Shown piece by piece: positions 1 to 12,112 of a stretch of DNA of 12,112 bases. Origin of the DNA: a virus (lineage: Duplodnaviria > Heunggongvirae > Uroviricota > Caudoviricetes); IMG/VR virus record IMGVR_UViG_2526164632_000015, positions 1 through 12,112 of that record. The stretch is one strand, 5' to 3'. Both the position numbers and the translations under genes were made by a program. The notes under the pieces were generated by a model. The model was given only the letters and a program-made list of their open reading frames with translations, did not search any database and was not told the DNA's origin. Numbering within the stretch: the first letter of the stretch is position 1; each line of letters opens with the position of its first letter.

Positions 1-2
1 GC

Positions 3-182
3 TATGGGCTGACAGTGACGGACTCGTGCCTCTTCACCAAACGCCTGGAGCGGGGCCGCTTCGTCTGGCCGGTCACCCGCGATGGAAAGGTTCACCTTAC
101 TCCGGCTCAGTTGTCCATGCTTCTAGAAGGCATCGACTGGAAGCACCCGAAACGAACGGAACGCGCTGGCATCCGCATATAA
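3..182 (+). CDS. tnpB: IS66-family TnpB (orf2), C-terminal fragment, 5' end cut by window edge
   Basis: Frame ending at TAA 180-182 translates to ...CLFTKRLERGRFVWPVTRDGKVHLTPAQLSMLLEGIDWKHPKR..., closely matching the C-terminus of the complete TnpB at 10123-10470 (...CLLTKRLERGRFAWPSARDGKVFLTPAQLAMLLEGIDWRQPKR...). Confidence 0.85.
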   Translation, partial: YGLTVTDSCLFTKRLERGRFVWPVTRDGKVHLTPAQLSMLLEGIDWKHPKRTERAGIRI

Positions 183-201
183 CCCGTTGTAAAGTGAGGA
201 T

Positions 202-1773
202 ATGGACACCTCACTTGCTCATGAGAATGCCCGCCTGCGGGCACTGTTGCAGACGCAACAGGACACCATCCGCCAGATGGCGAAATACAACCGCCTGCTC
301 TCACAGCGGGTGGCGGCTTATGCTTCCGAAATCAACCGGCTGAAGGCGCTGGTTGCGAAACTGCAGCGCATGCAGTTCGGTAAAAGCTCAGAAAAACTTC
401 GCGCTAAAACCGAACGGCAGATACAGGAAGCACAGGAGCGAATCAGAGCACTTCAGGAAGAAATGGCGGAAACGCTGGGTGAGCAATATGACCCGGTACT
501 GCCATCCGCCCTGCGCCAGTCTTCAGCCCGTAAACCGTTACCGGCCTCACTTCCCCGTGAAACCCGGGTCATCCGGCCGGAAGAGGAATGCTGCCCGGCC
601 TGTGGTGGTGACCTCAGTCCTCTGGGGTGTGATGTGTCAGAGCAACTGGAGCTTATCAGCAGCGCCTTTAAGGTTATCGAAACACAACGTCCGAAACTGG
701 CCTGTTGTCGGTGCGACCATATCGTGCAGGCAACAGTACCTTCAAAACCCATTGCACGCAGTTATGCCGGAGCGGGGCTTCTGGCCCATGTTGTTACCGG
801 GAAATATGCAGACCATCTGCCGTTATACCGCCAGTCAGAAATATACCGTCGCCAGGGCGTGGAGCTGAGCCGCGCCACGCTGGGGCGCTGGACAGGTGCC
901 GTTGCTGAACTGCTGGAGCCGCTGTATGACGTCCTGCGCCAGTATGTGCTGATGCCCGGTAAAGTCCATGCTGATGATATCCCCGTCCCGGTCCAGGAGC
1001 CGGGCAGCGGTAAAACCCGGACCGCCCGGCTGTGGGTCTACGTCCGTGATGACCGTAACGCCGGTTCGGAAATGCCCCCGGCGGTCTGGTTCGCGTACTC
1101 ACCGGACCGGAAAGGTATCCATCCACAAAATCATCTGGCCGGTTACAGCGGTGTGCTTCAGGCCGATGCTTACGGTGGTTACCGGGTGTTATACGAATCC
1201 GGCAGAATAACGGAAGCCGCGTGTATGGCTCATGCCCGGAGAAAAATCCACGATGTGCATGCAAGAGTGCCCACCGACATCACCACGGAAGCCCTGCAGC
1301 GTATCGGTGAACTGTATGCCATAGAGGCAGAAGTCCGGGGATGTACAGCAGAACAGCGTCTGGCGGCAAGAAAAGCCAGAGCTGCGCCACTGATGCAGTC
1401 ACTGTATGACTGGATACAGACTCAGATGAAAACACTGTCGCGTCACTCGGATACGGCAAAAGCGTTCGCATACCTGCTGAAACAGTGGGATGGCCTGAAC
1501 GTGTACTGCAGTAATGGCTGGGTGGAAATCGACAACAACATCGCAGAGAACGCCTTACGGGGAGTGGCCGTAGGCCGGAAAAACTGGCTGTTCGCGGGTT
1601 CCGACAGCGGTGGCGAACATGCGGCGGTGTTGTACTCGCTGATCGGCACATGCCGTCTGAACAATGTGGAACCAGAAAAATGGCTGCGTTACGTCATTGA
1701 GCATATCCAGGATTGGCCGGCAAACCGGGTACGCGATCTGTTGCCCTGGAAAGTTGATCTGACCTCTCAGTAA
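202..1773 (+). CDS. tnpC: IS66-family transposase TnpC (orf3), intact, 523 aa
   Basis: 523-aa ORF with GAGGA Shine-Dalgarno upstream. It has an N-terminal coiled-coil-like region, a CxxC...CxxC zinc-ribbon (CCPACGG...CCRCD) and the conserved IS66 transposase core ([38 protein letters not shown]). About 70% identical in the C-terminal half to the copy B TnpC. Confidence 0.9.
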
Positions 1774-1803
1774 ATATCAATACGGTTCTGGCGAGCCGCT
1801 TAC
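1774..1803. repeat. Right terminal inverted repeat of IS66 copy A
   Basis: 30 bp between the tnpC stop and the terminal ...CGCTTAC; shares the AGAACCGTATTGA core with the copy B right end. Exact inner boundary of the repeat is uncertain. Confidence 0.6.
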
Positions 1804-1844
1804 GATACACCGTTATATTCAAATTGTTCTGTTTTCAGGAACAT
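1804..1844 (-). pseudogene. G: 5' remnant (13 codons) of lambda G-like tail assembly chaperone gene, cut by IS66 copy A
   Basis: Minus-strand ATG at 1842-1844 lies 18 bp downstream of the gpV stop and reads MFLKTEQFEYNGV before hitting the IS terminus at 1803. This matches my recollection of the lambda gpG N-terminus (MFLKTESFEHNGV...) and the expected V-G gene order. Confidence 0.7.
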
Positions 1845-1862
1845 CGCTTATCTCTCAGCTCT

Positions 1863-2609
1863 TTAGCCACCCGGCACATTATTAACGGTAATTTCAGCCA
1901 CCGCAGCAAACTGACCATTACCGGAAATCACAGGGATGCTGACTTTTCCATCCTTAACCCCCGTCACAGTAATCGTCATATCTTTCACGCTAATGGTGGC
2001 TTTTGATGGATCGGCGGAAATCGCCCTGAATGTCTTATCCGTTGCATTTTCCGGTTCCACAGTAACGGTCAGGGTGGTTGTTTTCCCTTTTTCAACCGTA
2101 CCTGTCGGCGTTACCTTAATCGCAGTGACCGGCGTAATTTTGCTGCGTTCTTCCGCTACAGAAGGTTTACCCACGTTAGTGACTTTCACCGTGCGGGTGA
2201 TCACTTCTTTCGCCGTCACGGCCTTACCGATACTGCTGACCCAGCCACGAAACACATCCACCGTGCCATTCGGAAAACGGATTTTATAGGCCCGGACATC
2301 GCCGCTTTCAAACCAGCCTATAAGCCCTTTCTGGCCTTCCTCTCCCGGTTTCCAGGCCAGTGTAAAACTGGTATCACCTGCAGATTTCTGTCCCTGCCCG
2401 GTCGCGCTCCAGTCCGCGTCTTCATCATCCAGGTAGTTATCATCGTAGGATTCTGCCGTCATCTCGCCCGGCGTCAGATCCTTCACCTTAGCCAGTCGCT
2501 GCCAGTCATCATCTGACAACGGGTTGGCATAAGCATCATCCTTGCCGGTGTACACCCATAGTGTGGTGCCGGAACCTTTCACCGGCTCAAGAGGATTTGG
2601 TATTGCCAT
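1863..2609 (-). CDS. V: Major tail protein (lambda gpV homologue) with C-terminal Ig-like domain
   Basis: 248-aa ORF. Motifs [59 protein letters not shown] and [40 protein letters not shown] match lambda gpV as I recall it. C-terminal ~90 aa is a beta-rich Ig-like region. Confidence 0.92.
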
Positions 2610-2616
2610 ATCGTCC

Positions 2617-3015
2617 TCACATCTCGTAGGTAATTTTCCACAGGAGATCTGCCGATCCCCACATCATAAACTCATCATCCCGGCGGTAGTCATACCCCTG
2701 AAGATTCATCTTCAGCAGTAACGCACTGAGGCCGGGAACCGCCTCCAGCGCAGGAAGGATTTTCTCTTCCATCCACATATCCAGTGCCGAGTCCGGTTCT
2801 TTTGCCCTGAGAAAAACTTCAATATGCAGTGTCGCCTCCCAGGTCCCCTCATCAACGAACTCGTCAGCAGCAGACGCATCAGTCAGGTAAACAGCAACAG
2901 CAGGCAGTTCCTGTTCATCAATAAAAACCGGGCGGCCGTCAAACCAGCTCACCCGCTCAGAAATATTGTCTTTCAGGGCAGACAGAACTGCCGTCCGTAT
3001 TTCACGGTGTTTCAT
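2617..3015 (-). CDS. U: Tail terminator protein (lambda gpU homologue)
   Basis: 132-aa ORF. Start [11 protein letters not shown], internal LHIEVFL and C-terminal GYDYRRDD...SADL...ITYEM match the lambda gpU pattern. Sits between Z and V as in lambda. Confidence 0.88.
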
Positions 3016-3027
3016 ACACCCTCCCTG

Positions 3028-3657
3028 TCATTTTCTTTTCAGCACCAGGCGTAACTGATGCGTCATGGCTTTCATCATCTGCGCCGGTAATTTTTCCCGG
3101 TACATCCGGTCCCGTTCACGTTCAAAAGTTTCTGCCAGCGGTCCGGCAGTCGGAATTTTCACCACTTCAATCGGCAGACGGTAGCGTTTCGGCCTCCCTT
3201 TGCTGTCAGCACCGGTGGACGATGGTGCCCACGGCATACGCTGCATCACATGCCAGCGTCCGTTAGCCAGCCGGGTGATAAAGGCGTCCGGGATCCGTCT
3301 TTTCCCCACAATCAGCACACTGCCGCCCCCTTTCTTGACCGAACGCTCGCCTTTCTTTCGTCGCTTTCTGCGGGAAAGCCGCACGCTGGCCGTCCCCAGT
3401 TTTATGGCGGGCAGATTACCGGTGTTGATGATGACCTTCGCATAAATCCTGTCTGCGCTAGCCCGTTGCAGGCGGATACGCTCACGGATGAGACGGCGCG
3501 GAACCGCCAGCTCCCTGGCAACCGAAGAGGCCGTTTTCGCGATGATGGACTCCGCCACACGGTTAAGTGTCGTGGCGGCAGCCCGGGGAACGGCACGGCG
3601 GTCAATTGCATCCAGATTTTTCATGGCCTGCGCCAGACCTTTTATTGCCATACTCAT
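3028..3657 (-). CDS. Z: Minor tail protein Z (lambda gpZ homologue)
   Basis: 209-aa ORF. MAIKGL..., LPAIKLG, RLSRRKRRKKGERS..KGGGSVLIVGKRRIPDAFI..LANGRWHVMQR track lambda gpZ closely. Confidence 0.88.
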   Translation of the reverse strand: MSMAIKGLAQAMKNLDAIDRRAVPRAAATTLNRVAESIIAKTASSVARELAVPRRLIRERIRLQRASADRIYAKVIINTGNLPAIKLGTASVRLSRRKRRKKGERSVKKGGGSVLIVGKRRIPDAFITRLANGRWHVMQRMPWAPSSTGADSKGRPKRYRLPIEVVKIPTAGPLAETFERERDRMYREKLPAQMMKAMTHQLRLVLKRK

Positions 3658-3935
3658 TCCTGTTCGACAAAAATCCGGGGTTTACCGTTGTACGTGTCAT
3701 AACGGGTCACCGTCAGTGTGCGCCCCGCAAACACAACAACATCATGACGGGCCGGACGGTACCGGGCTGAAAACACCACCAGTGACAACTGGCTGCCCGA
3801 AAGCGCCCCCATCTCCGCGGACTCTTCCTCCGGCATCACGTCATACACGACGCCGTTAATCTCCGCCTGTTTGCCCATCACCCGAACGGTCGCCCCGTCC
3901 ATCCGGCAACACATTCGCGTAAACAGATCAGACAT
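3654..3935 (-). CDS. Small head-tail joining protein (gpFII-position, head-tail attachment-like)
   Basis: 93-aa ORF in the position lambda FII occupies before Z; start overlaps the upstream gene by 8 bp. Assignment is by position and size only. Confidence 0.5.
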   Translation of the reverse strand: MSDLFTRMCCRMDGATVRVMGKQAEINGVVYDVMPEEESAEMGALSGSQLSLVVFSARYRPARHDVVVFAGRTLTVTRYDTYNGKPRIFVEQE

Positions 3936-4254
3936 TGATTTTTACCGCCACAGTGGCGCTGTTTGCAGGAGCATTTTCCCAGGCTACCCCCGCGGCCACC
4001 GCACCCTCTGCAGCCAGCTGCACAACCCCGTCCTTCAGATAAACCACCGCGCCGGACTGAATGTCGTCAGCAGACTGTTTGGGCAGAAGGAACACGCCTT
4101 CGGCAAAACCGTCACCGGCATCACCGGCAGGAATATCTGTAATGGCCACGGCCACCATACTGCCGACCACCACCGCAGCACCGCTCAGGATGGTCTGATC
4201 TCCGGCATTCACCAGTTCAATGGTGGTACCGTCCTGTACAAAATTTTTCGCCAT
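3928..4254 (-). CDS. Small Gly/Ala/Val-rich head protein, putative decoration/cement protein (DUF2190-like)
   Basis: 108-aa ORF with a good Shine-Dalgarno (GGAGAAA about 8 nt upstream of ATG) immediately after the capsid gene. Composition is beta-rich G/A/V. Function inferred from position and composition. Confidence 0.5.
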   Translation of the reverse strand: MAKNFVQDGTTIELVNAGDQTILSGAAVVVGSMVAVAITDIPAGDAGDGFAEGVFLLPKQSADDIQSGAVVYLKDGVVQLAAEGAVAAGVAWENAPANSATVAVKINV

Positions 4255-4270
4255 AATGCTGTTTCTCCGG

Positions 4271-4293
4271 ACAGCCCCTGTGGGGCTGTTTTT
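4271..4293 (+). terminator. Perfect 8-bp stem / 3-nt loop hairpin followed by T5 on the + strand
   Basis: ACAGCCCC-TGT-GGGGCTGT followed by TTTTT (4289-4293). Lies in the 86-bp gap between the capsid and decoration genes, directly upstream of the decoration gene's ribosome-binding site on the minus-strand mRNA. Confidence 0.4.
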
Positions 4294-4300
4294 CAGGCAT

Positions 4301-4318
4301 AAAAAAGCCCTTTCGGGC
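4301..4318 (-). terminator. Short GC hairpin with GAAA loop followed by U6 on the minus (coding) strand, just after the capsid stop
   Basis: Minus-strand reading is GCCC-GAAA-GGGC then TTTTTT (reverse complement of 4301-4306). Only a 4-bp stem, so at best a weak or partial terminator. Confidence 0.3.
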
Positions 4319-4340
4319 AGTGATTGTGATAACTCGGTTA

Positions 4341-6320
4341 TCAGGCCACCGACGAACGCACCAGCCCGCGCCAGTCAAGTGGTGCCACTCCGGCATCAAT
4401 ACGGATTTTTGTGGCAATGCCGTCAGTGGTGAAACCTTCCTGCTGATCAATGTATGGCGTGTCCACACCATCCAGCCAGGCCACTTCAATGGTGTCAGTG
4501 CCCTGTGCCGCCGCCAGATACCAGGTTTTCGGATCTGCCGCATCAAGACGCGCTTCTGCAATCACCTCAGCAAAGTTCTGGATGGGGTTAATGACACCGG
4601 CGTTTGCATCCGCCCCTTTCACACTGGCCGATTTGATGGTCTGGTTCGCCACCGTCTCCAGTGCCACCGGTACCAGCATAAAGGCCGGACGGATATTCAG
4701 GGCGCGATCGCCTTCTTTCTGCAGGCGCATCATCTGACGGGCCGCATCCAGTCCGGAAACGGAAATCCCACCGGTGGCAATATTTTTGTGATCGGCATGG
4801 AACAGCGCCTTACCGTCTGACAGTTTCGGGTTATCCGTCAGCACCTTGTAAACCAGGTCACCAATCGTTGCCTTCGCCGCACGCCCCATCTTCATCGGCA
4901 CGTCCACCAGCATATTCAGATCATCATTGATAATGGCCTGGCGGGTGATGGAGAAAATCTCCCCGTAAGTGGCCAGTGCAATGGTCTCCTTGCGATCTGA
5001 GGTGGTGATGTATTTATACTCCGCCCCCTCACGAACCTGGCGCAGAGAACCAAAACCGCCCATCCCCACGCGATACGCTGTTTTGAAGTCTGACAGGCGT
5101 CCCTTACGGGTCCACTTCTGGAAGGTTTCTTCTGATTCCTCCCAGCCCTGGATCAGCCCCTTGTTCGACACATCCAGCAGAATATTGCCAAAATCAGAGG
5201 TGCTGTGCGTCAGCGCCAGCCCGACCATCTGCATGGGGTTATAACTGGCCACCCCAATACCGCGCTCCGTCAGTGACATGCGAGCCCATTCACGCAGGGT
5301 CATCCCGTTATAGGCGTTATCCTTCTCGACATTTTCAAATCCGGCACGGGCCAGCATCGCCTGGCGGATCCCGTCCCCCACAAAATTGCCGTTTCCGGCA
5401 TAAATATGAGCCGGTGTATTTTTGTTGGTCGGCGAGGACTCCTTGCCCATTTCATTCAGCAGACGTTCACGGGCCATTTCCAGCGAACAGTCAGGATCAG
5501 CCACGCACTGTGCCTGAAGCGTCTGATAGCGACCGCCGAACATGGCAAACAGATCGTTAATGCCTGACATGCGGGCTTTCTGTTCTGCCATAACGCGGGC
5601 GCGAATGGTCGCCTCATCAGACACTGCCGGTACCGGTGATGGTTCTGTTACCGCCGGTGCAGGGATTGTCACTGTGGTATCACGCGGGGCACTGTTGTAT
5701 GGCTGCGTGATCATATTTCGGATGGATTCCGGCATCTTTTTAAATTCCTCTGTACGTTTTGACTGAATACATGCCATTGCCTTAACGGCTGGCGTCACCT
5801 GGTCTGCAAATCCGTGTGCCAGACACTCGGCACCGGACATCCAGGTCTCATCCGCCAGCATGGCGGCAATTTCATCGGTAGTTTTTCCGGTTTTCTGCGC
5901 ATATACCGGCACCATAACCGACTCAAGTTTGTCCAGACGTTCGGCATAAGTGCGCATTTTCTCCGCATCACCACCGCTGATCCCCCAGGGTTTATGGATC
6001 ATCATGAAGGCATTTTCCGGCATAATGACCGTGTCACCGGCCATCGCAATCAGGGATGCCATCGAGGCGGCAACGCCATCCACATACACGGTAATGGCCG
6101 CACCGTGATTTTTCAGGGCATTAAAAATGGCGATGCCTTCAAAGACATCGCCACCCGGTGAGTTGATGTGGAGATTAATGTGGGTGATATCACCCAGGGC
6201 ATTCATATCGCTGACAAACTGCTTCGCGGTAACTCCCCAGAAACCAATCTCGTCATAAATATAAATATCCGCCTCACCCTGACCACCCGCCTGCATCCTG
6301 AACCAGGATTTATTCTTCAT
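4341..6320 (-). CDS. Fused head maturation protease (ClpP-like) / scaffold-like linker / HK97-fold major capsid protein
   Basis: One uninterrupted minus-strand frame. N-terminal ~200 aa carries ClpP-type motifs (HINSPGGDV, VDGVAASMASLIAMAGD, MMIHKPWG). A charged, helix-prone linker follows, then a ~300-aa C-terminal capsid-like region. The longest ORF runs to 6512, but that extension overlaps the portal coding region; start chosen at M65 (ATG 6318-6320, MKNKSWFR...). Start codon is uncertain; 6296 is an alternative. Confidence 0.8.
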   Translation of the reverse strand: MKNKSWFRMQAGGQGEADIYIYDEIGFWGVTAKQFVSDMNALGDITHINLHINSPGGDVFEGIAIFNALKNHGAAITVYVDGVAASMASLIAMAGDTVIMPENAFMMIHKPWGISGGDAEKMRTYAERLDKLESVMVPVYAQKTGKTTDEIAAMLADETWMSGAECLAHGFADQVTPAVKAMACIQSKRTEEFKKMPESIRNMITQPYNSAPRDTTVTIPAPAVTEPSPVPAVSDEATIRARVMAEQKARMSGINDLFAMFGGRYQTLQAQCVADPDCSLEMARERLLNEMGKESSPTNKNTPAHIYAGNGNFVGDGIRQAMLARAGFENVEKDNAYNGMTLREWARMSLTERGIGVASYNPMQMVGLALTHSTSDFGNILLDVSNKGLIQGWEESEETFQKWTRKGRLSDFKTAYRVGMGGFGSLRQVREGAEYKYITTSDRKETIALATYGEIFSITRQAIINDDLNMLVDVPMKMGRAAKATIGDLVYKVLTDNPKLSDGKALFHADHKNIATGGISVSGLDAARQMMRLQKEGDRALNIRPAFMLVPVALETVANQTIKSASVKGADANAGVINPIQNFAEVIAEARLDAADPKTWYLAAAQGTDTIEVAWLDGVDTPYIDQQEGFTTDGIATKIRIDAGVAPLDWRGLVRSSVA

Positions 6321-7811
6321 GCTGGCTGTCGGTGGCCTGCTGACGCTGTTGTTCAGTTCCGGCACTGTTGCCTCCTTTGTCGTTGACGGGGTCAGTATCA
6401 AAGACCAGCCCCAGTCTGCTGTTTTCATCAATTTCAGCCTTGCGGCGACGTTTGACCTCATCCGGATTGCGCCCGCCGGCACGCACCCAGTCAGATTCTG
6501 TCGCTGCACCACCCCGGATCTGAATTCTCCAGGCTTCAGCTTCCTTAACCGGGTCGATCCACGGCATCACCGGACCGGAATACGTCGCGTTATATAGCGT
6601 TTTCATCTCCACATCCGCCGGAATTTTCAGCAGACCTGCCGCAACCACCATATTCAGCCATGTCCGGTACACCGGACGGGTTACCGCGCCAATAAAACAG
6701 TCCTGCAGGATCAGGTAACCATCCGTGGACTCGACCAGCTCCTGCCGCTGGGCACTGTAGGTGCCGTTATAGTTACGCGCCGCACTGGAAAAACTCAGAC
6801 GACTGCCCGCTGCCACTGCACGCAACTGGCCGTTGCGGAAAGTTTCAAGGTTGGGATTGGGACGGTCTGATTTGACCATGCCGATATCCTCGCCCTTGCG
6901 CAAATCGTCATAAATAATACCCGGGGTGATATGGACTTCCCGGTCGGTTTCTTTGATCCCCGGCTCTTCATAGTCCTGCCCGTCACCTTTACGGATATAC
7001 AGTCCCAGCGCCGCGGCAATACGCGCCGCAGTGAGTTCCGCATCCTCATACTCCTTAAGGGCACTGATCCGCATCAGCACCCCCGATAACATGGATGAGC
7101 CTCGCGTCTGATGCAGACGACGAGTGAACTTCAGGTGGATCATTTTTCCGGCAGCGATTTCTTTCGTATCACTCTGCCGGCCGCTGACCGGATAATTTTT
7201 ATAAACCAGATATTTTTCGGTCTTCCCCACTCATCAAGAAAAACCCCCTGATTCAGTCCGGCGGATTCATCAGTGCGCATGGGAACAAAATCCGGCTCCA
7301 TCGCCTCAAGCCAGAATGGCACTCCCGCCGTCCGTTCCAGACCGTTTCCCGCACCACTGACCATCTGCGCAAACACTTCACCATCCCGCAGCCAGGTCCG
7401 CAGCAGTAAACGTTCAAGCACGGGACGGGTATACTGCCCTGTCACATCCGGACTCACGGACCACTCAGCCCACAACCGGCGGATATCCGCAGCCAGCTCT
7501 GCCGCCATTTCCCCGTTTTTTCGTAATGGCTGAGGCTCCACAATAATTCCCCTGGCACCAATCACCCGCTCTTCCAGCTTGTCAAACACACCAATCACCA
7601 GGTCATGATTGATATCCAGAAAACGGGCCTGCTCCCGCAGGGAAACCGCACCGTATTTACTGAGCTGATCAGCAGAGCGATTTTCCCGCCGGGCTTTATG
7701 TGTCCGGGTCGGTTTCACCGCCTCATAGGCCATGATTAACGCCCTTGAACGCAGTCTGGCTGCTTTCCAGCCGGGGGAAAACACGCCTATCACATCATCA
7801 ATAATTGCCAT
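6310..7811 (-). pseudogene. Phage portal protein, split by a single-base frameshift (or homopolymer sequencing error)
   Basis: Two overlapping minus-strand ORFs (7811-7140, 223 aa; 7230-6310, 306 aa) sum to a typical ~530-aa portal and sit between gpW and the protease/capsid gene. The frame switch must lie between 7233 and 7200, where there is an A5 run on the coding strand (T5 at 7213-7217 on +). Adding one A would read ...LDEWGRPKKYLVYKNYPVSG... Confidence 0.75.
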
Positions 7812-8047
7812 TAAAACCTCGCCAGTTTAAATCCTGGTTTTCCCCGCCTGCGGCTCACCATCGCGGCAAGCCTGCGTTCCCACTCCTGACGTCCGGCGCG
7901 GATCTGAGAAAGGCTTTCCAGCGTCAGTTGCTGTCCGTTGAAGGTGACAGACTTCCCCTCCAGTACGGCCATTTCCGCTTCACGGTACCGCTGTATCATT
8001 TCTCTGGCTTCTTCTGTGCTCACAACCAGCCTCCTGATGTTATCCAT
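7811..8047 (-). CDS. W: Head-tail joining protein (lambda gpW-like)
   Basis: 78-aa ORF between terminase large subunit and portal, as W is in lambda. C-terminus ...RRRGKPGF resembles the lambda gpW C-terminus (...RRRGPAGF) as recalled. Stop overlaps portal start (TAATG). Confidence 0.65.
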   Translation of the reverse strand: MDNIRRLVVSTEEAREMIQRYREAEMAVLEGKSVTFNGQQLTLESLSQIRAGRQEWERRLAAMVSRRRGKPGFKLARF

Positions 8048-9640
8048 GGATTATCTTCCGCACGCTCCGTCCGCAGTTTTTTCTTCCGGCGACGGCGTTT
8101 TTCTGCCCCGGCCGTCAGTTCCGGGGATACCGTTTCACCAGAACGCTCCTGCGGGAAGACGAGCCACGTTTCCCGCTGTGCCCAGTCCGGTGCGGAGGGC
8201 CAGCGGATCTTTTCGTAACCATGCAGAACGGCAAGCGCATCCGCATAAACCAGCAGGTCAAACGCCTCGTTAGCTCCCCTGCCCGGTTTTCGCCATTTTC
8301 CGTCACTGCCGCGCTCTTCATAGGTCAGCTCATCGTAAAACCATCGCCCCAGCCAGTCGGGAAAGTGGATATAGTTCGGCCCTGGTGTGTCACGCCACAG
8401 GGCATTATTTACACGGTCCTTAAACGCATCCGTCTGAACCAGCCACAGCGCGACATCGCCACTGGCTCTGGCACGGCGGGCACTTCTGCCGGTATTATCC
8501 GGGAAGGTACGGTTAATCAGCCTGTCACGGCGAAGTCCATCCCCCTTGAACAGAAACACCCTGTTGCCCAGTCCGTCACTCCGGCAACGACACCAGAAAC
8601 GATAGGCGTTATCTGTCACCCCGGCTTCCCCTCCCGTATCCACCGCCATGGCCATCAGACGCATGCGCACATCCGGATCAGAAGCCAGCGGCCATGTTTT
8701 ATGGAACACATCCGTCAGCAACAAATCCCAGTCCTCCGGATATGCCGCCGGATCAACCGGCAGACTTTCACCGTTGGGACTGCAGCGCAGTGAATGCCGG
8801 ATGTTATAGCGATCAACAATCCAGCGTTCCCCCTGCTCTCCGTATCCGGTGATCTGCACAACAAAACGGCGATTTTTACCGCCCTGTACGTCAACCGTTG
8901 CCTCAATAAAACGCACACCATCCGGCACAGATCGCCGGGGAAACGGCTCGGCACGCTGTTCAAGCAGTTCACTTTTACGCTGTTCCGTGGCTGAACGGGG
9001 CAGATAGGGGCGTCCGATATCGGTGTTCACCACCGCTTTCAGGGTCTCTTCACTGCCGGTTCGCTCATACTCTTCTTCTGCCGCCAGCAGTTTAAAAATC
9101 AGTTGTTCCCAGGTCTGAAACGCCGCAGCCGGCCCCTCCATCCAGAATGACGCAATCCGGGAATTTCGTGGCGTTCCGGTGATACTGCCGTCCGCCACCG
9201 CCCGTTCACCTTCACGAAGCCAGATCCCTTTGTTATTCAGTTCGCGTTTCTGCTCAGGGGCAATCAGCCCGCGACAATGCGGACACATCAGACGGGCAGC
9301 CTGACCGGCAGCCACAAAATCCGGGTTATTCCGGTATCCGGTCATGTTATCCATCACCGGCTGAAAATATTCCCCGCAGTGCGGACACGGCCAGTACCAC
9401 CGGCGGCGGTCTCCCCGGTTATACAGTGACAGGATCCCCGTTGTTGGCGGTGCCTCATGTGCGCCGCCACAGCGCCATTTGGTGTCAGTGATATCCCGCC
9501 CCGGCGAACTCTCGACCAGGGTCATCCCCGAGGACATAAAGGTGGTGGTACGCTTTGATGCCAGGGTGAAGGCATCCCCTTCCCCGTCCACGTTTTCAGG
9601 GAAACGGTCATAATCCGTCAGCGCCACACGACGGTAATCC
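8020..9640 (-). pseudogene. A: Terminase large subunit (lambda gpA family), N-terminally truncated by IS66 copy B
   Basis: About 540 codons of open frame with a CPHCGE...CPHC zinc-binding segment and a C-terminal region (IHFPDW..., NEAFDLLVYADALAVL) resembling lambda gpA. Typical gpA proteins are ~640 aa; the frame runs straight into the IS terminus at 9641. The ORF track extends it to 9723 only because the frame stays open by chance inside the IS. Confidence 0.8.
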
Positions 9641-9672
9641 GTAAGCGTCGTCTCAGCACCGTCTGGCAGATC
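9641..9672. repeat. Left terminal inverted repeat of IS66 copy B
   Basis: GTAAGCGTCGTCTCAGCACCGTCTGG...; matches the right-end reverse complement at positions 1-8 and across the CAGCACCGT region. Imperfect. Confidence 0.55.
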
Positions 9673-9721
9673 CTGAAATTCCTGAGAGAATAGTGGACAC
9701 CAAATATGGTGGACGCTATCC

Positions 9722-10126
9722 ATGAAATCATTAACCGCAGTGCGTAAAAAAAGCCCTAATTATCCCGTTGAGTTCAAAATCAAAATGGTTGAACTCTCGC
9801 ATCGACCAGAGATCTCCGTAGCGCAACTCGCTCGTGAGCATGGGATCAACGATAATTTGCTGTTCAAGTGGCGCCAGTACTGGCGCGAAGGAAAACTACG
9901 TCCTCCTTCAACAACAGAAAACAACGTGCCTGAGCTGCTCCCGATAACACTTGATGCCGAAGATGTTGTCCCTACAACCTCCCCCCGGTCACAACCTGTA
10001 GCTGCTGCGACACCTGAATCACTCAATATCAGCTGTGAAGTGACGTTCCGGCACGGATCACTCCGTCTGAATGGTGCCATCAGCGAAAATATCCTGAACC
10101 TGCTGATACGGGAGCTCAAACGTTGA
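9722..10126 (+). CDS. tnpA: IS66-family TnpA (orf1), small helix-turn-helix protein
   Basis: 134-aa ORF, first gene inside the IS, followed by tnpB with overlapping stop and start. The true start codon may be internal. Confidence 0.75.
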   Translation: MKSLTAVRKKSPNYPVEFKIKMVELSHRPEISVAQLAREHGINDNLLFKWRQYWREGKLRPPSTTENNVPELLPITLDAEDVVPTTSPRSQPVAAATPESLNISCEVTFRHGSLRLNGAISENILNLLIRELKR

Positions 10127-10470
10127 TCCCATTACCATCAGGGACAAAGATCTGGCTGGTCGCTGGCATCACCGATATGAGAAACGGCTTCAACGGCCTG
10201 GCGGCAAAGGTGCAGACGACGCTGAAAGACGATCCGATGTCAGGTCACGTTTTTATCTTCCGTGGGCGTAATGGCAGTCAGGTAAAGCTCCTCTGGTCTA
10301 CCGGCGATGGACTGTGTCTGCTGACCAAACGGCTGGAGCGCGGCCGCTTCGCCTGGCCGTCAGCCCGGGATGGCAAAGTGTTCCTCACACCGGCACAGCT
10401 GGCGATGCTGCTGGAAGGTATCGACTGGCGGCAGCCTAAAAGACTGCTTACGTCCCTGACTATGTTGTAA
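10123..10470 (+). CDS. tnpB: IS66-family TnpB (orf2)
   Basis: 115-aa ORF (MIPLPSGTKIWLVAGITDMRNGFNGLAAKV...). Apparent TTG start overlaps the tnpA TGA stop (TTGA), suggesting translational coupling. Confidence 0.8.
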   Translation: MIPLPSGTKIWLVAGITDMRNGFNGLAAKVQTTLKDDPMSGHVFIFRGRNGSQVKLLWSTGDGLCLLTKRLERGRFAWPSARDGKVFLTPAQLAMLLEGIDWRQPKRLLTSLTML

Positions 10471-10518
10471 GCCTCTTTATCCTGGTCGACGCTGAATGAG
10501 CCTGGTAATATACCCGGT

Positions 10519-12058
10519 ATGAGCAGCTCACTTCCTGACGATATCAATGCACTGAAACGTCTCCTTGCCGAACAGGAGGCGCTGAACCGTGCCCTGCTGG
10601 AAAAGCTGAACGAGCGTGAACGCGAAATAGACCATCTGCAGGCACAGCTGGATAAGCTGCGCCGGATGAACTTCGGCAGCCGCTCCGAAAAAGTCTCCCG
10701 TCGTATCGCACAGATGGAAGCTGACCTGAAGGCACTTCAGAAAGAAAGTGATACCCTTACCGGTCGGGTTGACGACCCGGCCGTGCAGCGCCCGCTGCGT
10801 CAAACCCGCACCCGCAAACCGTTCCCCGAATCACTCCCCCGCGATGAAAAACGGCTGCTGCCGGCAGCATCATGCTGCCCGGAATGTGGAGGCTCACTGA
10901 GCTATCTGGGTGAGGATGCCGCCGAACAGCTGGAGTTGATGCGCAGCGCCTTCCGGGTTATCCGGACTGTACGTGAAAAAGCATGCCTGTACTCAGTGCG
11001 ATGCCATCGTGCAGGCCCCCGCGCCTTCACGGCCCATCGAGCGGGGTATCGCAGGACCGGGGCTGCTGGCCCGCGTGCTGATCTCAAAGTATGCAGAGCA
11101 CACCCCGCTGTACCGCCAGTCTGAAATGTACGGCCGCCAGGGCGTGGAGCTGAGTCGTTCACTGCTGTCGGGCTGGGTGGATGCATGCTGCCGGCTACTG
11201 TCACCGCTGGAAGAAGCGCTTCAGGACTATGTGCTGACTGACGGTAAGCTCCATGCTGATGACACGCCTGTCCCGGTGCTGTTGCCAGGCAATAAGAAAA
11301 CGAAGACCGGGCGGTTATGGACCTACGTTCGTGACGACCGTAACGCCGGGTCAACGCTGGCGCCGGCGGTGTTGTTCGCTTACAGCCCGGACAGAAAAGG
11401 CATCCATCCGCAGACCCATCTTGCGGGGTTCAGTGGTGTACTGCAGGCGGATGCATACGCCGGGTTCAACGAGCTGTACCGGGATGGCCGGATAACGGAA
11501 GCCGCCTGTTGGGCTCACGCCCGCCGTAAAATCCACGATGTGCACGTTCGCACCCCGTCAGCCCTGACGGAGGAAGCGCTGAAACGGATCGGCGAACTGT
11601 ACGCCATCGAGGCAGAGATAAGGGGAATGACGGCGGAGCAGCGCCTTGCCGAACGTCAGTTGAAAACGAAACCGCTGCTGAAATCCCTGGAAAGCTGGCT
11701 GCGTGAAAAGATGAAAACCCTGTCGCGACACTCAGAACTGGCGAAAGCGTTCGCATACGCCCTGAACCAGTGGCCGGCGCTGACGTACTATGCAGATGAT
11801 GGCTGGGCTGAGGCGGACAATAACATCGCTGAAAATGCGTTGCGGATGGTCAGTCTGGGCCGCAAAAACTACCTGTTCTTCGGTTCGGATCATGGAGGAG
11901 AGCGGGGAGCGCTGCTGTACAGCCTGATCGGGACGTGCAAACTGAACGGAGTGGAGCCAGAAAGCTACCTCCGCTATGTCCTTGACGTCATAGCCGACTG
12001 GCCGATAAACCGGGTCGGCGAACTGCTCCCCTGGCGCGTAGCACTGCCGACTGAATAA
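10519..12058 (+). pseudogene. tnpC: IS66-family transposase TnpC (orf3) with a +1 frameshift at an A5 run (10976-10980)
   Basis: ORFs 10519-11124 and 10973-12058 together align colinearly with the intact copy A TnpC. Removing one A from the run restores ...[20 protein letters not shown]..., parallel to copy A ...[20 protein letters not shown]... Confidence 0.8.
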
Positions 12059-12095
12059 CACATCCCCGTCAATACGGTTCTTGCTGCACGCTTAC
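12059..12095. repeat. Right terminal inverted repeat of IS66 copy B
   Basis: ...CAATACGGTTCTTGCTGCACGCTTAC; shares the AGAACCGTATTGA core with the copy A right end. Confidence 0.6.
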
Positions 12096-12112
12096 CATCA
12101 AACATCGTGGTT

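Follow-up and report, generated by a model that had tools for sequence, protein, structure and literature searches.

Origin of a one-base split in the tnpC gene of an ISEc22 copy on a draft Escherichia coli contig

Does an insertion sequence whose transposase gene is split by a single extra adenine represent a copy inactivated by mutation, a gene that is read by recoding, or an error in the assembled sequence? The question is raised by an IS66-family element at the end of the DNA analysed here (the window; 12,112 nt), which is the entire contig AIHC01000031.1 of the draft E. coli DEC12C assembly GCA_000250255.2 and whose last 2.45 kb are filled by the element. A preliminary description of this DNA, made from the sequence alone, had treated the split as a mutation that makes the element non-autonomous, with sequencing error as a caveat. 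We conclude that the split tnpC is most likely not a real feature and holds nothing new: comparisons of sequences indicate that the extra A is probably a sequencing or assembly artefact, i.e. an error of homopolymer length in the draft consensus.

An ISEc22 element with tnpC divided between two frames

Judged by megablast, in which hundreds of annotated ISEc22 copies from E. coli chromosomes and enterobacterial plasmids match it at 99.6-100% identity, the element at 9641-12095 is ISEc22, an ordinary E. coli insertion sequence. Its ends, set by comparison with two other loci whose copies measure 2454 bp, begin with GTAAGCG as those of the canonical element do, and enclose 2455 bp versus the canonical 2454 bp. 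The terminal repeats are imperfect: the outermost 8 nt agree fully when the right end is read as its reverse complement, and over the 27 positions there are 17 matches. The genes tnpA, tnpB and tnpC lie consecutively in this order, with a spacer of 48 nt ahead of tnpC at 10519. In its ends, in tnpA and in tnpB the element is like canonical ISEc22 (e.g. that of E. coli O26:H11 11368, of O111:H2 12A or of plasmid pFORC64.3), and at the protein level its tnpC equals the canonical one after one A is removed. It is unlike the canonical copies in that it carries five adenines (A5) rather than four (A4) at 10976-10980 and in that its 8-bp target duplication is unmatched, the right flank being that of another copy. 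The element, its parts and its borders are as follows:

9633-9640, plus strand: left flank GGTAATCC, which in 12A is the 8-bp target duplication around the copy in the terminase gene
9641-12095, plus strand: ISEc22 element (IS66 family), identified by megablast
9641-9667, plus strand: left terminal inverted repeat, GTAAGCGT..., by comparison with the right end
9722-10126, plus strand: tnpA, 134 aa, HTH_Tnp_1 (Pfam), intact, at the same position as annotated WP_000839179.1
10123-10470, plus strand: tnpB, 115 aa, TnpB_IS66, intact, with a TTG start overlapping the tnpA TGA stop (TTGA)
10519-10980, plus strand: 5' portion of tnpC, read in frame 0 (codons 1-154), with LZ_Tnp_IS66 and the first half of zf-IS66
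10976-10980, plus strand: A5 run, site of the extra base, A4 in all other copies examined
10981-12058, plus strand: 3' portion of tnpC, shifted to the +1 frame, with the second zinc-finger Cys pair, DDE_Tnp_IS66 and DDE_Tnp_IS66_C
12069-12095, plus strand: right terminal inverted repeat, ...ACGCTTAC, by comparison with the left end
12096-12112, plus strand: right flank CATCAAACATCGTGGTT, unlike the left flank and 100% identical to the flank of the yoaI-region ISEc22 copy in 12A and FDAARGOS_1059

Direct reading of positions 10973-10982 gives GTGAAAAAGC, in which the A5 run occupies exactly 10976-10980. The list of open reading frames holds an upstream tnpC frame at 10519-11124 (201 aa, frame 0, stop at 11122-11124) and a downstream one at 10973-12058 (361 aa) that is offset by +1 relative to the first, in agreement with the frameshift that the preliminary description had placed in this run. 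The same description had proposed that deletion of one A would restore a colinear protein, and removal of one A in silico indeed yielded a TnpC of 512 aa that is 100% identical to the ISEc22 transposase WP_000099160.1 of RefSeq, the predicted 10-residue stretch included. The break in frame follows K153, within zf-IS66 (residues 118-161) and upstream of DDE_Tnp_IS66; it separates the first pair of cysteines of the zinc finger (CPEC) from the second (CTQC). The 201-aa product EHX38958.1 results from the 5' frame, which in the assembled sequence stays open as far as the stop at 11122-11124. LZ_Tnp_IS66, zf-IS66, DDE_Tnp_IS66 and DDE_Tnp_IS66_C are all present; in the assembled sequence they are divided between the two frames, and in one polypeptide they become continuous once one A is removed.

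The frameshift had been located by comparison with an intact "copy A", taken to be a second copy of the same insertion sequence. This assignment has to be revised, as copy A is IS679 (window 1-1803, truncated within tnpB, where the contig begins), the DNA of which is only about 69-73% identical to ISEc22 in the aligned blocks. IS679 and ISEc22 share the IS66 family, the organisation and the TnpC domains (LZ, zf-IS66, DDE_Tnp_IS66 and the C-terminal element), and they differ as separate IS species with TnpC proteins of 523 aa versus 512 aa. Since the two TnpC proteins are colinear, the earlier protein comparison placed the frameshift correctly.

Within window 1-450, IS679 shows four differences from the canonical sequence, namely G>A at 4, an additional C at 25 (in tnpB), C>A at 125 and C>A at 447, the last of which leads to S82R in the IS679 TnpC. 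The four were found in 0 of 2565 matching records. These differences point to a consensus of low quality where the contig ends or to several IS679-like copies mixed together. Further along, at 1803/1804, the right end of IS679 abuts the inside of the phage tail gene gpG, and ~4.3 kb of the tail genes of 12A are missing at this point (the rest of gpG, T, the tape measure gene, a gpM-like tail gene and L). The junction between IS679 and the tail gene was present in no complete E. coli genome searched; it would reflect a misassembly or else an event in DEC12C, namely a deletion next to IS679 or a new insertion.

Recoding as an unlikely reading of the A5 run

A divided transposase gene could in principle be read by recoding. 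The full TnpC would be restored if tRNA-Lys slipped by +1 on GAA-AAA-G, from AAA to AAG, or through transcriptional slippage on the A run, and the short product, carrying the leucine zipper and half of the zinc finger, would serve as a regulator likened to those of IS1, IS3 and IS911. With the tRNA moving by +1 from AAA (10978-10980) onto AAG (10979-10981), the product would be precisely the wild-type TnpC, and transposases regulated by frameshifting are known in the IS1, IS3 and IS5/IS427 groups (PMC3281130). For the IS66 family, the same source describes a multi-ORF organisation without frameshifting, which it gives for the IS3 and IS5/IS427 groups (PMC3281130), and a literature search for frameshifting in IS66 tnpC found nothing relevant. 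The transposases of IS1 and IS3 and prfB are similar to the window tnpC in having an A run in lysine codons between the N-terminal DNA-binding and the C-terminal catalytic parts. However, the sites of IS1 and IS3 direct a -1 shift on conserved heptamers of the A6G/A7 type with stimulators, whereas the window tnpC needs a +1 shift and is without a stimulator; and while the +1 frameshift of prfB uses a stop codon together with a Shine-Dalgarno-like element, the site in tnpC has neither and is unconserved.

The shift required is +1, and the codon in the A site is an ordinary GCA, neither slow nor stop. Direct reading of the upstream sequence, GGGTTATCCGGACTGTACGTG, revealed no Shine-Dalgarno-like element; the RNA of the 90 nt downstream folded no better than shuffled sequences (z = +0.77), and a scan of the whole window against Rfam gave no match. 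A slip in the -1 direction meets a stop after 33 codons. Transcriptional slippage reportedly needs runs of about 8-9 A/T, a figure that goes back to Baranov and co-workers in 2005, and the A5 run is below the length needed. Furthermore, the two-ORF form is not conserved, tnpC being one continuous ORF with A4 in every other copy, and thus there is no selection maintaining the split form. Programmed +1 or -1 frameshifting and transcriptional slippage were rejected on these grounds, i.e. an unconserved site, no stimulators, a closed -1 frame and too short a run. We consider programmed recoding at A5 effectively excluded and give the whole reading next to no chance; the earlier view that there is no programmed frameshift here holds, since the E. 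coli records (1235), plasmid records (919) and contigs of other species (3) yielded no full-length A5 match.

It is also conceivable that A5 is real in DEC12C and that the 201-aa protein, with its leucine zipper and half zinc finger and without DDE, acts as a trans-dominant inhibitor of the remaining ISEc22 copies, or that rare +1 slippage on GAA-AAA-G gives traces of full-length TnpC. If true, either would be a naturally arisen regulator of IS66-family transposition; we regard this as highly improbable.

The run in public sequences and in closed sister genomes

Among ~15 billion public proteins, the 201-aa frameshift product EHX38958.1 occurs on exactly one contig, which is the window itself, and for the intact 512-aa TnpC at least 917 contigs are recorded. 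With a 61-nt query that had the run at its centre, no full-length 100% match to A5 was obtained among 2573 places of 1235 E. coli records; of these records, 1225 matched at 98.4% identity, i.e. 60 bases, which corresponds to A4, and given that the best-ranked full-length E. coli matches stand at 98.4%, there is no full-length A5 match among them. The A5 form was likewise absent from 919 plasmid records (Klebsiella, Escherichia, Enterobacter, Citrobacter, Salmonella and Shigella). In species-representative genomes of other species, 3 of 3 contigs carried A4, as seen in 32-nt matches to an exact pattern allowing A4 or A4+N. At the protein level, the REKACLYSV junction was found in no other protein when 5.8 billion clusters were searched with the out-of-frame tail. 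The preliminary description had suggested asking whether A4 is the norm among other copies; it is, with A5 in none of >3,600 other places.

The tail query also matched further broken TnpC fragments of ISEc22-like elements, whose frameshifts or deletions lie at other positions and have no common break point. Some of these fragments switch frame several times and resemble products of noisy long-read assemblies.

In the closed genomes of O111:H2 12A and FDAARGOS_1059, ISEc22 lies at the identical prophage terminase site, with the target duplication GGTAATCC, A4 and an intact tnpC. The 12A copy shares the terminase insertion site and the left target duplication with the element in the window, and the two are identical at 2454 of 2455 positions. 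Comparison of window 1804-12095 (10,292 nt) with both closed genomes revealed 0 substitutions and three one-base homopolymer indels:

4300: A6 in the window, A7 in the closed genomes
7212: T5 in the window, T6 in the closed genomes
10976: A5 in the window, A4 in the closed genomes

The T5 run (window 7208-7212) breaks the gene for the phage portal protein, on the minus strand, into the ORFs 6310-7230 and 7140-7811. It was present in none of the 524 matching complete-genome records, T6 being found in 524 of 524. The A6 run at window 4295-4300, where the sister genomes have A7, is intergenic, between a DUF2190 gene and the capsid gene, and this form is common to 8 of 526 complete-genome records. 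The expectation that all three homopolymer differences are specific to the window was therefore dropped: given the A6 at 4300 in 8 other genomes, only two of the three are unique to the window.

A homopolymer difference was also seen in another public assembly: the ISEc22 tnpA of FDAARGOS_1059 has C5 where the window (9976-9981) and 12A have C6, and it is annotated there as a shortened 279-nt "transposase".

The two flanks of the ISEc22 segment do not belong together. The 8-bp target duplication is not matched in the window, which has GGTAATCC at the left and CATCAAAC at the right, whereas the terminase insertion of 12A has GGTAATCC at both sides; CATCAAAC is the target duplication of another ISEc22 copy, in the yoaI region, which in 12A lies ~930 kb from the terminase copy. 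Despite the yoaI-type right flank, the internal SNPs of the window at 10364 and 11722 agree with the terminase copy. In the 12A chromosome, matches to this ISEc22 end lie at 5 places. That the right flank comes from another copy suggests a collapsed repeat consensus, and we attribute the mismatch of the flanks to repeat collapse or a chimeric contig end, or to recombination between ISEc22 copies.

Consensus error and strain-private mutation as possible sources of the extra A

The extra A is most likely an error because A5 occurs in no other public copy. The terminase site probably harbours an intact copy of canonical ISEc22, in which tnpA and tnpB are accompanied by a gene for a 512-aa TnpC bearing leucine-zipper, zinc-finger and DDE domains. 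The assembled stretch would then be a consensus that appears to run out into the flank of another copy, and in this consensus the A4 run would have been called one A too long, resulting in an artificial split of tnpC after codon 153. In a pooled consensus of about five copies, a real change in one copy would be outvoted. Homopolymer-only indels in both directions, two uniquely broken genes, noisy ends and chimeric flanks are together what one would recognise in an assembled sequence as the signature of draft consensus errors in a collapsed repeat. The likeness to homopolymer consensus errors of drafts extends to one-base changes in runs of at least five, in both directions and without substitutions, to genes that are broken though intact in relatives, and to the repeat-bounded contig; here we infer them from the assembled sequence. 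Among the points that count against an artefact, the intergenic A6 at 4300 occurs elsewhere, so that not every indel is unique, and if the DEC12C draft was Illumina-only, consensus errors in A4/A5 runs would be uncommon. The laboratory behind the draft used 454/Celera or HiSeq/Velvet around that time (PMC3715677).

In the main rival reading, the extra A would be a real and recent +1 insertion private to DEC12C, arisen by replication slippage in the A4 run of one ISEc22 copy. TnpC would then be truncated after K153 within the zinc finger, with the DDE domain out of frame and the ends, tnpA and tnpB kept, and the copy would be mobile only with TnpC supplied by the other ISEc22 copies of the genome. 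A5 does stand in the deposited sequence, and the frameshift precedes both the second Cys pair of zf-IS66 and DDE_Tnp_IS66. Homopolymer runs are prone to natural indels and are a hotspot of genuine ones. Moreover, the tnpC and the portal frameshift both fall in a prophage that two IS insertions had already put out of action; in a prophage thus broken there is no purifying selection against real frameshifts, and these would escape selection. Other frameshifted ISEc22-like tnpC fragments, at other positions, are present in public data; the sister strain has several further ISEc22 copies that might complement in trans; and DEC12C and 12A are different isolates, which leaves room for a private mutation.

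Weighed against such a mutation are the uniqueness of A5 among all the places and proteins surveyed and the pattern of change along the contig. In repair-proficient E. coli, substitutions exceed indels roughly tenfold according to mutation-accumulation studies, and 0 substitutions with three homopolymer indels over 10.3 kb is the reverse of this spontaneous spectrum. A second unique homopolymer frameshift, that of the portal gene, lies on the same contig, and with the contig-end errors and the chimeric flanks the IS segment may not be one physical copy. Taken together, we hold a genuine mutation to be unlikely, though with an appreciable chance of being right. Of the earlier reading, what stands is that the frameshift is not programmed and that A4 is the norm; a genuine mutation rendering the element non-autonomous is not preferred, in view of the A4 in the sister genomes, the lack of substitutions, the portal frameshift, the differences at the left end and the chimeric flanks. 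The caveat of sequencing error that accompanied that reading offers the better explanation, the window being a whole draft contig and its sister genomes carrying A4.

Were the mutation real, this ISEc22 copy would be without a functional TnpC and hence non-autonomous, an ordinary fate for an IS copy, and would join the inactivated copies of an insertion sequence that is very common, within a dead prophage. The biological weight of the split tnpC is small, and its practical value is one of caution. No fewer than two homopolymer frameshifts are unique to this contig, and two of its junctions have no counterpart in any closed genome. Genes that appear split and junctions with an IS, here and probably throughout the draft, should not be called pseudogenisation or rearrangement without support from reads.

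At the left border of the element, the truncated ORF of the terminase large subunit (8020-9723, minus strand) runs on for 83 nt within the left end of the IS, up to an ATG there. This ORF is a hybrid of terminase and ISEc22, and its equivalent in 12A is annotated by RefSeq as a pseudogene without the N-terminus.
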